Shown piece after piece: positions 6,926 through 41,711 of a stretch of 64,000 bases of DNA; the stretch's first letter is position 1; each line of letters begins with the position of its first letter. The DNA comes from a virus, in the IMG/VR virus record IMGVR_UViG_3300029305_006397; one strand, written 5' to 3'. The notes beneath the pieces are model-generated. The model saw only the letters and a program-made list of their open reading frames with translations, was not told the DNA's origin and did no database searches. A program made the position numbers and the translations under genes.

Positions 6926-6954
6926 TATTGTGCCTCCAATTCATATGTCGTGAG

Positions 6955-7395
6955 TTATTCAACAACCAGTTCAAGTTTTGTAAAAGTGGAAAGTTCATCG
7001 ACAAGATAGATTTCAAAGCAATCGCAGCCATCCTGAGTGCCAACGTATTTAAAAGCAATATGTGCAATATCCAATGCTTCTTCTACCATATAATCGTAAC
7101 CATCCTGATCGAGAATCCAGAGGGCATCGGTACATTCAGAAAGGCGCAGATTGTAACCGTAGTCAAAACCCAGCAAGTCAAAGCTGCCTCTATTCTTTTC
7201 GTAATCAAGGACTCGAAGTGTTTTGATGGTACGAGATTCTTTAATTTCTGAGCGAATGCGGCGCAACACAAAAATGGGATCATCAAAAGATTGGGAAACC
7301 TCGTTAATCCATGAATGATCCTGGGTAAATAAAGAACAAGGATTATCGATGATTTGAAGATGAAAAGGATTGGCGACGATGATTTCAGTATTCAT
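6955..7395 (-). CDS. hypothetical protein (146 aa)
   Basis: Track ORF. AAGGAGAG SD upstream of the ATG. Confidence 0.6.
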   Translation of the reverse strand: MNTEIIVANPFHLQIIDNPCSLFTQDHSWINEVSQSFDDPIFVLRRIRSEIKESRTIKTLRVLDYEKNRGSFDLLGFDYGYNLRLSECTDALWILDQDGYDYMVEEALDIAHIAFKYVGTQDGCDCFEIYLVDELSTFTKLELVVE

Positions 7396-31290: not shown

Positions 31291-31397
31291 TGTAAAATTC
31301 CCCTTCCTATCTTTCCAAATGATTGACAGGAAGGGGCAAACTATGATATATTTCTGTATAGGAAGGGCGGAAGGAAATTCCCTCCACCCCCATGCGG

Positions 31398-31481
31398 TTA
31401 GATTTCGTCCGGGTTATCCGTGGCGCGAATAATCCCATCAGACCACATCCAGCCGTATTTAGTCCGATACAGGGCTTTCAT
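31398..31481 (-). CDS. possible micro-ORF (27 aa)
   Basis: AGGAAGGAGGA SD plus ATG directly after the bidirectional terminator. Confidence 0.25.
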   Translation of the reverse strand: MKALYRTKYGWMWSDGIIRATDNPDEI

Positions 31482-31505
31482 GGCGGTTGTCCTCCTTCCT
31501 ATCTT

Positions 31506-31555
31506 TTTATAAAAAGCGGTCTTGTGTTGGTAGCACAAGGCCGTTTTTATCTTTT
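31506..31555. terminator. bidirectional intrinsic terminator
   Basis: 10-bp stem CGGTCTTGTG/CACAAGGCCG (one mismatch), flanked by an A-run on one side and TTTTTATCTTTT on the other. Confidence 0.6.
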
Positions 31556-31766
31556 AAAGCCGTTTTTTCTACGATACGGCAAAACGCTTGACCCATGCTA
31601 TATGGGAATGAATCGGGGTTCAAGGGATTGCCCCGGTCGCCTCCAGCCGTGTTCTTACATGCCGCTGGACACAGGTAGCCTGCATAATCATCTCATTCTC
31701 CGGCTACAGAGTTTTGCGCGGTTTCGATAGACGCACATTTATTGGCGGTTGCTATCGGGAATGGTT

Positions 31767-31828
31767 AACCCAGACCAGCCCATGTGGGCGTGGTTTCGTC
31801 GCAATTTTCAGCGACTCGTCAGTGGGTT
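31767..31828 (-). ncRNA. type-I hammerhead ribozyme (HH-e)
   Basis: AACCCA-CUGACGAG-[UCGC/GCGA]-CGAAAC-[stem III]-GUC/TGGGTT. The UGA of the core is the stop codon of 31819..32016. Cut is between 31773 and 31772. Confidence 0.8.
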
Positions 31829-32016
31829 TCAGGGTATTCCATTGCTATGGCTCTGACGGCTTCAATATCCGTCAACATTCCTCTTTCATATACGCGCAAA
31901 ATATTTTCTATGCGTGTTTTTCTTAATTCTTTGATAGACGTTAACATTAACGTATTTTCTGCATCTGTCTGAAGCATATCTTGCGCAAACTCATGCACAT
32001 AGCGTTTTCTTCTCAT
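31819..32016 (-). CDS. hypothetical protein (65 aa)
   Basis: Track ORF. SD GAAGGGAAGG. Its stop is embedded in HH-e. Confidence 0.6.
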   Translation of the reverse strand: MRRKRYVHEFAQDMLQTDAENTLMLTSIKELRKTRIENILRVYERGMLTDIEAVRAIAMEYPETH

Positions 32017-32038
32017 GTTTATACCTTCCCTTCTCTTT

Positions 32039-32107
32039 CCATACCCACGCCCCGGCAGGGCGTGACGCTCACGGCTTAAATGGCTTTTTATAGTCGCCGT
32101 GACGACT
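32039..32107 (-). ncRNA. pistol ribozyme (Pistol-f)
   Basis: AGUCG-UCACGG-CGACU hairpin. The loop is complementary to the downstream CCGUGA (pseudoknot). Then GCG, P3 UCACGCCC/GGGCGUGG, G/U, AUGG pairing with CCAU. Same spacing as the env25 pistol as I recall it. Cut is between 32044 and 32043. Confidence 0.75.
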
Positions 32108-32418
32108 CAGACAATTATGCAGCGTTTGAACGGATTTTCGCAGGGGTCGCAACCGAAACCGAAATTTTCTCCGTATATATCGATATACTGAAGTCCAGCG
32201 AATTTGCCGTTCTGAATGGTTTTTAACTCCATTGTAGCGCGGCGCATAGCCTGTTTTGCCTGTTTAATGGTTACGTCGTCGATATTGTAGAATCTGTTTA
32301 GCTTGTTTTGAATTTTATTCAAGAAATTCATTGCAAGGTCATTTGTAACATTCTTTTTATCGGACTCCATGAAACAGTCAAACCCGTATGCACGAAGATA
32401 AAAACCCTGTTTTTTCAT
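32107..32418 (-). CDS. hypothetical protein (103 aa)
   Basis: Track ORF. SD GGGAGGG. The last base of its TGA stop (A, 32107) is the first base of pistol P1. Confidence 0.6.
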   Translation of the reverse strand: MKKQGFYLRAYGFDCFMESDKKNVTNDLAMNFLNKIQNKLNRFYNIDDVTIKQAKQAMRRATMELKTIQNGKFAGLQYIDIYGENFGFGCDPCENPFKRCIIV

Positions 32419-36397: not shown

Positions 36398-36456
36398 TCT
36401 AAAATTCTCAGACTAAGTAAGGATGAATGAAATGGGTAAATAAAGAAGGTGTTTGT

Positions 36457-39342
36457 ATGCCTCTGGATAAGCAAATTCAAATTATCTCGACTGATACTGC
36501 GGGATTCTACAGCAACCATGAGGCAAGGTTGCATTTGAAAAATCATAAACTTCGAAGCGAAAGAAAAATACTTAAAAAAGGCGGAGTCGTTAAAAGAGCA
36601 AATGGAGACAAACGGATCGTTATTGGTTTAGATGAAATTGAAAATAAGCTTGCCGTATTTGGTATTTACTCTACTGACATAGAAGACATCATAAACGAAC
36701 GCTTTAATTTTGACGACTATACCTTAGAGGATATAGGCGAAATTAAGCATTTGATTTCCGATTACAACTTGAAAAAGAAGCTAATTGAAATCAAGAACGC
36801 TGCAATCAGCGAAAGCAAAGAGCAGCTTTTGAAGCTCTTGGCGAATAAAGTCCAGGAGAACGTAAGCTCAAATGGAAGGCATCATACGAGGTACTTGAGA
36901 GAGAATAGCGTTGTAAACAGTAATATCATTTCGGTATTTGATTCGTCCTTTACGAGAATGATCGGAGCAAAGGAAAATGAATTATGCGAAGATTTTATGG
37001 TGATTCAGGTATTTTACTTTGATGTATTGAAAGATATTCTGTATCATGGGTATACATACAAGGGCGAGAAATATATTTATTTTACTTCATCTGCCGGACA
37101 GATCAGGACAAAAAAAGCGGTTTTTGTAAAAGAAAAAATCTGGAACGAGCATGAGCGTACAATTATGTGTGGATTAACGCTTGACGAGATAAATCGCAAG
37201 GGAGGTAACAATCCCAATAAGCATCTGGCTTATATGGCTTTGAGCAATTCAGCCACTGATTTGTGGCCTGAGTTCGATATTGATAAAGCCATTGTAATCG
37301 ATGATTTTGAAACCAATGTATTTGGAACCTACGATCTCGTGGATGATGCGGACTATACTATTACCAGGGTTTCAGATTTTGTTCCTATATCTCATACAGA
37401 TGGCGCTGGTATGATACTCCCCTGTGCCTTTGGAAAGACCCAGAAAAATAAAATGGTTCGATTACCGTGGATTAAAGGATTGCTTGGCGTTTTTGATTTT
37501 AGGAAGTTTATAATTGATCAAGGAGCTTCGCCAGTAATTCGAGATATTTACGGAAAAGAACACAATTTGATTTCCGAAGATATCCAGGTAGTTTTCACCA
37601 AATCTCAGCATAAAATGTGGAAATACTATAACTCCTGGAACGAATATAAAGCGGCTTATAAGAAATATGGTTGTACTGCCGGATATACCAATGAAGAAGA
37701 GTTGAATATTCCTAATGCGTCCATCAACTATCAAATGCTTCAAACACTGACGGATATTACTCCGGAAGAGATTTTAAAAATTGCAAATAAATCTATTGGC
37801 TGTTTGGAAAATATGACGAGCAGTATAGATAACATTCGAGCAGCATTTGGTGGAGCAAATTATAATCAGGATAAGAGTAGTTTGAACAAAGCATTAGATT
37901 TATACCCTGATCTATTAAACGATGATTGGATTAAGAGAACCCTCCGGGCAATTCGCGATAGCTTGATCAAGGATTATAAAGCTGGAAAATTGAGAGTGCG
38001 AGGCAAATACACATTCTTACTCCCTGATTTTTATGCTGCATGCCAATATTGGTTCCTTGGGATCGAGGAACCGGAAGGGCTTTTGCAAGATGGAGAGGTA
38101 TTTTGTTGGTTATTTCCTGAAAGCGAAAAATTAGATTGCTTGCGAAGTCCTCATTTATATCGCGAACATCCTATTCGCAGGAATGTCGCATGGATAGGTT
38201 ATAAAGAAAGACAAGCCAAGATCAGAGAATGGTTTGGTACAAACGCAGTTTATACGAGCTGCCATGATTTGATCAGCAAGATTTTGCAGTTTGATGTTGA
38301 CGGAGATAAGAGTCTGGTGGTGGCAGATAAAACTATTATTGACGTTGCAGAGCGTAATATGCAAGGAATTGTTCCTTTGTATTATAACATGCGTAAAGCT
38401 TCTCCAGTGCAATTGAATAACGAAACGATCTATAACGGGTTGAACGCAGCATTTGTTGGCGGTAATATTGGAATATACAGCAATAATATTTCAAAGATTT
38501 GGAATAGTGAAGTTTTCATAAGCGGCAGCAATGAAGAACGTCGGGAAGCATTGGATATTATTAAGTTGCTTTGTATGGAAAATAATTTCGTTATCGATTA
38601 TGCCAAAACTCTGTATAAACCAGAACGCCCTAAGCACATTCACGAAAGAATCCTGGCCTTTACAAGAAATAAGCTTCCTCATTTTTTCGTTTATGCTAAA
38701 GACAAGCTGGACGATCAAGTGGAAAAACGCAATGGCAGTTTCGTAAATCAGTTGGATGATATAATACCTGTCCCCAGGTTCCATTTCAAAAAACTTGGTT
38801 TAGAAAAAGTTGAACATAGGTTTTTAATGCATGATTCAAATTGCACTGCAAGAGTAGCTTTTACAGATTCGGGTAAAATCATTTCAGAAGAGACAGACCC
38901 TTTAATTTTGGCGTACCATGCATTAAATAAAAAATATTTTTTGGACTTGGGAGAAGTATTACAGGTGAACTATTGCAATACTGAGTTGATATCAATATAC
39001 GCTAAAAATGGTGCTCTTGCCAAGAAGCAGCAAATGATCGAAGAAACGAAAAGCATTCTATCTGAATTTGGATATAATCAAAATCAAATTGTAGATATTT
39101 TAGTCGATTATGTGTATGGGAAAAATAGGTCGAATGCAAAAGCACTGCTATGGCTTTGCTATGGCGATTCGATTTATAAGAATATGCTACAATATTTAAT
39201 TCCGGATTTTAAGACGATACAGTGCGTAGATTGCGATGCATTATTTTCTGTTTCTGCTAAAAATCAATATGCATGCCGTTGTCCAGAATGTGCTAAAAAG
39301 CAGAAAAAGGCCGAAAGGCAATTAAAAAAGATGCTGTCTTAA
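36457..39342 (+). CDS. putative single-chain two-barrel RNA polymerase (YonO / RdRP-like), 961 aa
   Basis: CLRSPHLYREHPI ... 40 aa ... FDVDGDKSLVV (DVDGD at 38293-38307) parallels NRAPTLH ... NADFDGD of beta-prime and DxDGD of RdRP/YonO. C-terminal CxxC...CxxC zinc ribbon. ATG follows GAAGGTG (track start 36427). Confidence 0.5.
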   Translation: MPLDKQIQIISTDTAGFYSNHEARLHLKNHKLRSERKILKKGGVVKRANGDKRIVIGLDEIENKLAVFGIYSTDIEDIINERFNFDDYTLEDIGEIKHLISDYNLKKKLIEIKNAAISESKEQLLKLLANKVQENVSSNGRHHTRYLRENSVVNSNIISVFDSSFTRMIGAKENELCEDFMVIQVFYFDVLKDILYHGYTYKGEKYIYFTSSAGQIRTKKAVFVKEKIWNEHERTIMCGLTLDEINRKGGNNPNKHLAYMALSNSATDLWPEFDIDKAIVIDDFETNVFGTYDLVDDADYTITRVSDFVPISHTDGAGMILPCAFGKTQKNKMVRLPWIKGLLGVFDFRKFIIDQGASPVIRDIYGKEHNLISEDIQVVFTKSQHKMWKYYNSWNEYKAAYKKYGCTAGYTNEEELNIPNASINYQMLQTLTDITPEEILKIANKSIGCLENMTSSIDNIRAAFGGANYNQDKSSLNKALDLYPDLLNDDWIKRTLRAIRDSLIKDYKAGKLRVRGKYTFLLPDFYAACQYWFLGIEEPEGLLQDGEVFCWLFPESEKLDCLRSPHLYREHPIRRNVAWIGYKERQAKIREWFGTNAVYTSCHDLISKILQFDVDGDKSLVVADKTIIDVAERNMQGIVPLYYNMRKASPVQLNNETIYNGLNAAFVGGNIGIYSNNISKIWNSEVFISGSNEERREALDIIKLLCMENNFVIDYAKTLYKPERPKHIHERILAFTRNKLPHFFVYAKDKLDDQVEKRNGSFVNQLDDIIPVPRFHFKKLGLEKVEHRFLMHDSNCTARVAFTDSGKIISEETDPLILAYHALNKKYFLDLGEVLQVNYCNTELISIYAKNGALAKKQQMIEETKSILSEFGYNQNQIVDILVDYVYGKNRSNAKALLWLCYGDSIYKNMLQYLIPDFKTIQCVDCDALFSVSAKNQYACRCPECAKKQKKAERQLKKMLS

Positions 39343-41378: not shown

Positions 41379-41711
41379 TTATGTTATCTATTTCCCAACA
41401 TACTGTCATGCGTGGGTGGAATAAGAAGAGACGGGCGTTTTCGGTCGGCATAAACCGAAGTTTGGCATTTGAGGTCAAATGAGTTTGATGAATGCAATCC
41501 CGTGCTGCTATGCGGTATTTGCAGGAGAACAACAGGGGTTTGCGTATAACCACAAGGCAGCTAGGTACAATCCGAAAGAAAAACGGTTATAAAGGGCGTC
41601 CCGCCACCTATATCCCAAGTGTGGAACGATAAAGCAGGTGTTTCGCTGCCTATAAATGCGAAATTTAATCAGCTCCGTGTTGGATATTTTGACATGCGGA
41701 GCATTTTATAT

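Follow-up and report, generated by a model that had tools for sequence, protein, structure and literature searches.

A conserved RNA module of about 55-80 nt lies at 31635-31559, between a hammerhead ribozyme and a terminator-like hairpin in a phage operon. We favour, with somewhat better than even confidence, the reading that this is a non-coding RNA (ncRNA): the hammerhead cut and the terminator would release the module, likely as a small stable RNA that acts with a partner. Phage operons punctuated by ribozymes are already known, and a hammerhead and a terminator that together excise a small conserved RNA would be one use for such cuts. The module is absent from Rfam, is found in phage types that have almost no genes in common, has stems that compensate and appears to be delivered by at least three routes, which points to a function of its own. 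Its small size makes it a short, well-defined target for biochemistry.

A first-pass annotation had proposed a discrete RNA of about 265 nt, running from the hammerhead cut to the terminator. Its core idea is partly supported here, in narrowed form. Beyond close relatives, conservation is limited to the 3′ third, so the relevant unit appears to be the 55-80-nt motif rather than the whole 265 nt.

THE LOCUS AND ITS CLOSE VARIANTS

The window, by which we mean the whole 64,000-nt stretch that was analysed, is the first 64 kb, reversed, of a virus record of 146,162 bases. Among the features of the record are a gene for a YonO-type polymerase (36427-39342), a pair of tRNA arrays and numerous small ribozymes. 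All coordinates of the stretch are read on the minus strand unless the plus strand is named. In that direction the local gene order is headed by an 85-aa gene, followed by a pistol ribozyme (32507-32442), a 103-aa gene, a second pistol ribozyme (32107-32039), a 65-aa gene (32016-31819) and a type I hammerhead ribozyme (31828-31767). The stretch that had been flagged as an RNA comes next. It opens with a 5′ part (31766-31641) with the hairpins H0, H1 and H2 and continues into the conserved motif, which consists of the P0 hairpin (31635-31614; CGGGG/CCCCG, loop CAAUCCCUUGAA), the P1 hairpin (31606-31592; CCCAU/AUGGG), the unpaired linker UCAAGCGUUU (31591-31582) and the P2 hairpin (31580-31559; GCCGU/ACGGC, 12-nt loop AUCGUAGAAAAA). 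A bidirectional hairpin terminator (31548-31512), a leader with a 27-codon ORF (31480-31398) and a 153-aa gene (31290-30829) complete the order.

The 27-codon ORF and the 153-aa gene have a leader in common, AAAGAUAGGAAGG(G/A)GG, ahead of their start codons (window 31510-31495 and 31316-31300; contig L126, 3975-3995). For the 153-aa gene, a pairing of this leader with CCCCUUCCU, which lies 28 nt upstream, is possible and would mask the ribosome-binding site.

Close variants of the region come from two sources. L121, a Logan contig, has the whole stretch at 96% identity, its adjacent 153-aa gene being only ~89% identical in DNA. Contigs of four public runs, compared with the region, give three more variants (X7, X8 and X16). 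The 65-aa protein has no relatives in viral contigs and finds only itself among 5.8 billion proteins; contigs in which this protein is unchanged match the window at 99.6-100% identity and add no information.

THE HAMMERHEAD RIBOZYME

The hammerhead is built from stem I (AACCCA/UGGGUU), stem II (GUCGC/GCGAC) and stem III (seven pairs with one bulge). Its core boxes are intact, with CUGACGA at 31822-31816 and GAAA within CGAAAC, and the cleavage triplet is GUC. A hammerhead with a predicted cut between C31773 and U31772 had been annotated before, and this assignment stands on the complete core, the three stems and a match to the full Rfam model RF00163 at 31828-31767 (24.0 bits, E 0.0033 in a 1-kb search), which falls below the gathering score of 34 because of the long loops in stems II and III. 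The 65-aa gene runs into the ribozyme, its TGA stop codon lying inside the CUGA box. Near-identical copies of the hammerhead are found in L121 and L126; the L126 copy fronts a different downstream sequence.

Self-cleavage, as predicted from the fold, would thus take place at the end of the 65-aa gene. The leftward operon transcript would be cut at C31773/U31772, leaving a 5′-OH end, and the downstream RNA would extend for ~260 nt to the terminator, with its U-run at 31515-31511.

In 2011 Perreault et al. reportedly described several hammerhead ribozymes along one polycistronic transcript of a prophage or phage. The hammerhead of the window resembles these in being of type I, with a complete core, between small phage genes and one of a series of ribozymes on the same strand. 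It differs in what follows it: ~260 nt of ncRNA with a motif and a terminator, rather than the leader of the next gene.

THE CONSERVED MOTIF

Discovery and membership. The starting clue was a 34-nt blastn match between 31595-31562 and a gene-free gap in contig L122 (E 3e-4 in a small search), where there is a hairpin with an identical loop and a compensated stem. A pattern made from the bases common to the window and L122 was found in 4 viral contigs and 40 metagenome contigs; about half of the 40 have both hairpins, the rest being chance matches. Viral and metagenome contigs together provide ~21 distinct copies. There is one copy per locus and, by self-search, one in the whole 146-kb genome, where the surrounding region likewise has no duplicate. 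An 18-nt exact pattern taken from P0 gave one chance match, in a GC-rich contig, and was set aside.

Layout. The motif consists of P1 (4-6 pairs, loop of 4-18 nt), the linker UCAAGCGUUU and P2 (4-9 pairs) with the loop AUCGUAnAAnAA. A long form adds the upstream hairpin P0, whose loop begins (C)AAU or AAA and ends AA. The window has the long form, with P0 pairing 31635-31631 with 31618-31614, P1 31606-31602 with 31596-31592 and P2 31580-31576 with 31563-31559; both hairpins, the linker and the loop are present in order and in register. This copy starts ~135 nt past the hammerhead cut, and its P2 ends 10 nt before the terminator. Hairpins at the position of P0, with different stem sequences, are found in L122, L134, L140, L164, L167, L168, L128 and L130.

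Model. Since MAFFT was unable to align the variable P1 loops, a covariance model was seeded from three members of equal length and the rest were aligned by Infernal. The first model, R1, with its three-member seed, was built without the window sequence and scores the window at 43 bits. The rebuilt model, R2, finds 31606-31555 of the window with 59.2 bits (E 2.4e-15), its sole strong match in 1.6 Mb of relatives' loci. Matches of 17.5 bits at L071 1948-2013 and L114 2076-2141, which have UGAAGCGUUU and a shortened loop, may be degenerate relatives or chance; with their weak scores, they and a 14.5-bit match in L181 were not accepted as members.

Covariation. Across the 21 distinct sequences, all five pairs of P1 change on both sides, with 96% of cells paired, and four of the six pairs of P2 do so. 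For the two stems together this amounts to 9 of 11 pairs, and 92.6% of cells pair as against 58.3% in shuffles, the counts resting on an alignment that was fitted to the covariance model. When the partners are slid by 1-3 columns, 30-49% of cells pair. None of 500 shuffles reaches the observed covariation score.

Fixed bases. The linker is identical in every member found, and it was part of the search pattern. All members were selected by an exact pattern that covered both linker and loop, so the invariance of these two elements is partly built in. Within the lineage of the window, L121, X7, X8 and X16 all keep the linker intact, with variation at the positions beside it. Two natural variants, G31569>U in X7 and A31565>U in L121, hit the two variable positions of the P2 loop, and the other changes within the lineage sit just outside the stems. 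Between the window and L121 there are 3 changes in the 86 nt of the motif, all at variable positions, and ~12 in the 126 nt of the 5′ part; the neighbouring gene is ~89% identical.

Extensions. An extra hairpin after P2, with a loop ending GCCU(U/A)(G/C)ACGUGGC, is seen in the long-form copies of L122 (3172-3215), L134 (downstream of 4942) and L151 (downstream of 4906). A box GUGUCGGG(U/C)(G/A)UAA follows P2 in a group of phi29-like phages, and a similar box is also found upstream in L127-L130. The motif may have subtype-specific 3′ extensions.

FOLDING AND THE 5′ PART

Folding energy gives the stretch a z-score of -1.88 if the terminator is counted in; parts that exclude it score -0.2 to -1.1. 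The energies are ordinary and by this measure the stretch is not more structured than chance, so that a claim of structure has to rest on comparison with other sequences. Four helices had been named in the first-pass annotation, and all are present: GUAGCC/GGCUAC is H1 (31707-31702 with 31680-31675), CCAGC/GCUGG is H2 (31668-31664 with 31647-31643) and, from the coincidence of their coordinates, CCCAU/AUGGG is P1 and (C)GGGG/CCCC(G) is P0. The description of the region as helix-rich is not borne out by the energy, which is at chance level; that it is structured RNA is supported by comparison, two of the four helices, P1 and P0, being stems of a motif that is conserved and covaries.

The 5′ part has a third pairing, H0, in minimum free energy folds (31757-31752 with 31730-31725). 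The pairing of H1 is kept in L121 and X7, where A31705>C occurs with U31677>G and linked changes fall at 31701/31702 and 31681-31683; in H2 the variation among close variants is confined to the loop. Such micro-variation is all that backs H1, and the 5′ 130 nt appear to be lineage-specific. In blastn of GenBank phages and in nhmmer and nucleotide searches of relatives' loci, 31766-31641 had no homolog beyond close relatives. A search for homologs in other phages, which the first-pass annotation had suggested, therefore divides the RNA: the 3′ third (31635-31559) recurs and the rest is not conserved beyond close relatives.

CATALOGUE SEARCHES AND OCCURRENCE IN OTHER PHAGES

We searched for the motif among known RNAs and genomes. 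Rfam 15, with drum, the RAGATH motifs and the other self-cleaving ribozyme classes in its library, gave no match to the minus strand of 31766-31559 at E up to 10, and no match over the motif copies of 16 other loci at E cut-offs of 1 and 0.1. A pattern scan of 185,579 prokaryote species, with one genome each, found no true copy; its nine matches were rejected as low-scoring stretches of coding sequence that have no such hairpins. In blastn against 50,697 GenBank phage records a motif copy found no other copy, only a chance match of 25 nt, and 31380-32120 had no match among GenBank phages. A full-text literature search for the linker and loop strings returned unrelated primers only; supplementary lists may still hold the motif. 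From these results with Rfam 15, prokaryote genomes, GenBank phages and the literature we treat the motif as uncatalogued.

The copies occur in several settings. In L131 and its near copies, a promoter (TTGACA, 17 nt, TATAGT) precedes the motif and a terminator follows ~25 nt later. The unit lies on the strand opposite to all neighbouring genes and faces convergent genes; because of this orientation we regard it as a stand-alone small RNA gene, and its layout from promoter to terminator makes a discrete RNA plausible in the window as well. In L139, L145 and L148 the motif is found inside tRNA arrays, where the model match ends 5-8 nt before the next tRNA. In L148 (146,165 bases), a different motif copy (6946-7107) lies 5 nt upstream of a 95-nt tRNA-Ile(UAU) in a nine-tRNA array. 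L127-L130, L140, L143, L151, L167 and L168 are phages of ~18 kb whose protein-primed type B DNA polymerase and p6-like DNA-binding protein mark them as phi29-like; in these the motif comes after TATAAT-like boxes, and the genes that begin 35-55 nt beyond it are unrelated. Several phages besides this group likewise have it ~35-55 nt before a start codon. L122 and L134 have a protein family in common with the phage of the window, and in L122 the motif comes ~135 nt after a pistol ribozyme.

Several known identities were considered and dropped. The pRNA of phi29 has a different topology, the motif has no Rfam match and it also occurs in phages that are not phi29-like. Short forms lack strands required for an HDV-like fold, and pairs required for a sarcin-ricin or T-loop mimic are absent. 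A -10 promoter box in the loop UAnAAU was dropped because the final base of the loop varies and there is covariation in the stems.

THE TERMINATOR AND THE 3′ END

The strong bidirectional terminator of the first-pass annotation is upheld: the scan reads the hairpin 31548-31512 on both strands, and it folds with -14.7 kcal/mol. It has the make-up of an intrinsic terminator, a G+C-rich hairpin and then a U-run, here at 31515-31511 of the minus strand, and leftward transcripts would be expected to terminate there.

In the near-identical variant of run X8, homology to the window ends exactly at 31559, the last base of P2, and resumes at 31311. The intervening 247 nt (31558-31312) are replaced by 64 other bases at the 31311/31559 joint of the X8 contig. 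From this gap we conclude that the terminator, the leader, the 27-codon ORF and a plus-strand promoter-like site form one 247-nt indel. Since the terminator lies within this indel and a close variant lacks it, the 3′ end of the RNA is not a conserved feature. A 248-nt contig from an RNA library (run X16) covers 31732-31487, which is mostly inside the predicted RNA and matches neither predicted end. It is weak evidence for the RNA; contigs cannot show ends, and this one may derive from DNA.

For a discrete RNA of ~265 nt, then, the non-coding character of the stretch, the conserved motif and the stand-alone unit of L131 speak in favour. Against it are a terminator that is not a conserved partner of the motif, the presence in L126 of the hammerhead without the RNA, and the disagreement of the X16 contig with both predicted ends.

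A FREE RNA OR A CIS-ACTING LEADER

In the reading that we favour, the functional core would be the last third, 31635-31559, that is P0, P1, the linker UCAAGCGUUU and P2 with its loop AUCGUAnAAnAA. The unvarying unpaired bases may form a binding surface for a putative protein or RNA partner common to many hosts or phages, since bases fixed in this way suggest recognition by a partner that is common across hosts. The hammerhead and the terminator would be this phage's means of freeing the module from a long transcript. Other phages would make it from a promoter and terminator of its own, or would free it by tRNA processing within tRNA arrays. The genes downstream of the motif in different phages are unrelated to one another, and no protein gene associated with the motif was identified. 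One module with three or more routes of production and unrelated genes downstream is best explained by an RNA acting on its own, probably in trans.

The chief alternative, which we consider unlikely, though it deserves serious weight, is that the motif is a cis-acting leader element and not a free RNA, the hammerhead merely separating two messages. In one version, the motif alters the polymerase that is transcribing it, which then passes the terminator 10 nt further on, in the manner of HK022 put or the Bacillus EAR; in another, it stabilises the downstream cistrons at their 5′ end or marks them for processing. The position of the terminator invites this alternative: it is a strong one, directly after the motif and in the middle of a co-directional gene array. 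As same-strand genes continue past it, termination must be partial or overcome, which a cis role fits equally well. Beyond the terminator, the minus strand has a single promoter-like site, a weak one with 9 of 12 matches that extends over the start of the 153-aa gene. In X8, 64 bases separate the motif from the point at 31311, just before the 153-aa gene, where homology to the window is regained, and a leader role would also suit the phi29-like copies, which come after TATAAT-like boxes and 35-55 nt before genes, and the copies in tRNA arrays, where the motif is in the tRNA leader. On the other side, the unit of L131 ends at its terminator and faces convergent genes, the genes downstream of the motif are a different set in each phage, a terminator stands behind the motif in only two of ~10 lineages, and there is no similarity to any Rfam family.

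The comparison with antitermination can be made concrete. HK022 putL and putR and the Bacillus EAR are processive antitermination RNAs, with two hairpins and a position early in transcription units. The motif also has two hairpins, of similar size, with a strong terminator directly after it, a likeness of layout only; the stand-alone copy of L131 does not fit a purely cis-acting role.

The layout of the copies in tRNA arrays recalls phage T4, whose tRNA cluster encodes stable RNAs (species 1 and 2, from rnaC and rnaD) that are not tRNAs and are presumably freed by tRNA processing. The copies of L139, L145 and L148 are likened to these by their place inside tRNA arrays. The copy of the window is outside such an array, and a ribozyme and a terminator would release it.

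A further step from a free RNA would be a joint claim, which we put forward tentatively as a possibility: that the UCAAGCGUUU/AUCGUAnAAnAA motif is a new functional RNA class with a specific biochemical activity, delivered by interchangeable routes in unrelated phages; that its carriers are phi29-like podophages, a 146-kb SPbeta-like phage with YonO and phages with tRNA arrays; and that its activity may be to bind and reprogram a universal host machine (RNA polymerase, ribosome or an RNase), or self-cleavage.

A POSSIBLE RIBOZYME OF ITS OWN

Self-cleavage by the motif is also an alternative in its own right, and as such we consider it improbable. The motif would be a self-cleaving ribozyme of an undescribed class, or else the site of a specific RNase, and would punctuate the operon. 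Like self-cleaving ribozymes, it is small and has many fixed unpaired bases between variable stems, and it is found in the places of phage ribozymes: between genes, beside tRNAs and 150-170 nt from a hammerhead (window) or a pistol (L122). The candidate bases for a pseudoknot are among those that never vary. Against self-cleavage, an Rfam 15 scan of the motif loci found no ribozyme near the motif outside the window and L122. In the window and L131, moreover, terminators stand directly behind the motif, and Weinberg et al. (PMC5737381) held that terminators behind the drum and skipping-rope RNAs argue against self-cleavage.

The RNAs of that report (PMC5737381, 2017) are small, with many fixed bases and covarying stems, are often phage-borne and sometimes have an intrinsic terminator, and do not occur in consistent 5′ UTRs. 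Our motif is like them in size, fixed bases, covarying stems, phage carriage and, in the window, the terminator behind it. It differs in having no sequence or model match to them; the window's own match to drum is elsewhere, at 41483-41590.

Theta ribozymes (Kienbeck et al. 2024, PMC10879173) are HDV-like and are small structured RNAs beside the tRNA genes of viruses, in uncultured gut phages. The motif resembles them as a small structured RNA of uncultured phages that lies beside tRNAs. The theta fold is a nested double pseudoknot, whereas the motif has consecutive hairpins, and its short forms lack the strands of the HDV fold.

CASSETTE EXCHANGE AROUND THE RIBOZYMES

The surroundings of the module are in flux. 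X7 and X8 retain the pistol (32107-32039) and the hammerhead, with other genes between them in place of the 65-aa gene; window positions 31829-32063 are exchanged for 273 other bases in X7 and 517 in X8. To judge by such variants, the ribozymes appear to be conserved seams for the exchange of gene cassettes. The 3′ edge of the motif, where the homology of X8 breaks off, would be another such seam, which bears on the evolution of these arrays.

In 115 relative loci, collected through the 153-aa protein and the YonO polymerase, there was no nucleotide or nhmmer match to the region. In the closest of these relatives, L080 and L051, with a polymerase ~60% identical, the 85-aa gene is followed directly by the 153-aa gene, and the whole 1.2 kb from the pistol to the 27-codon ORF is missing. 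In L126 (3842-4000), the hammerhead agrees with that of the window in each of its first 38 bases; a GGUACAUG/CAUGUACC hairpin with a U-run follows and then directly the 153-aa homolog, so that there is no long RNA. Because L080 and L051 lack the 1.2 kb and L126 has the hammerhead without the RNA, we regard the flagged RNA as an accessory insert and not a fixed part of the operon.

These same absences are what could be said for the stretch as functionless filler, left over from the shuffling of cassettes between ribozymes and transcribed while neither stable nor used; the lack of homologs of the 5′ part beyond close relatives and the ordinary folding energy agree with it. Filler would hardly account for a motif that is conserved across unrelated phage types with compensatory changes, and that within the lineage varies less than the coding sequence next to it, its changes being confined to variable positions, and we judge this alternative very improbable.

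The spacer from a DUF8033 gene to the 85-aa gene holds a hammerhead in the window (32847-32790) and a pistol ribozyme in L080 (5967-6034) and L051 (5985-6052). One class of ribozyme would seem to have been exchanged for another in the same spacer.

CODING POTENTIAL

The only minus-strand ORFs in the stretch are of 23 aa (31691-31620), 38 aa from a TTG start (31623-31507) and 21 aa. The first-pass annotation saw no convincing ORF and named a 23-codon candidate, and we agree with it. Across the five near-identical variants the candidate frame has 23 aa (window and X8) or 61 aa (L121 and X16), or is interrupted by a stop (X7). The frame is thus not kept open among close variants, and silent changes are not favoured: between the window and L121 there are ~5 replacement changes and 2 silent ones.

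The 61-aa form arises from an extra base behind 31659 in L121 and X16, which fuses the two frames of 23 and 38 aa. A gene for a small protein, disrupted by a frameshift in the window and reading 61 aa from an ATG at 31691 through motif and terminator to a TAA at 31507, has that fused ORF and a GGAG 6 nt before the ATG of the window in its favour. It is most unlikely, since the window, X6 and X8 have a broken frame and X7 a stop in it, there are more replacement than silent changes, the GGAG is absent from L121, the leader AAAGAUAGGAAGG that precedes two neighbouring genes is lacking, and the frame would cross RNA stems that covary in other phages, most of whose copies have the loop AAUAA, which puts a TAA stop into it.

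The 27-codon ORF behind the terminator is not a typical type I toxin, because its peptide is not hydrophobic. The plus-strand promoter-like site (31323-31352; TTGACA, an 18-nt spacer and TATATT with a TG, 11 of 12 matches) is directed through this ORF toward the two-way terminator and could yield an antisense RNA of ~190 nt against it.
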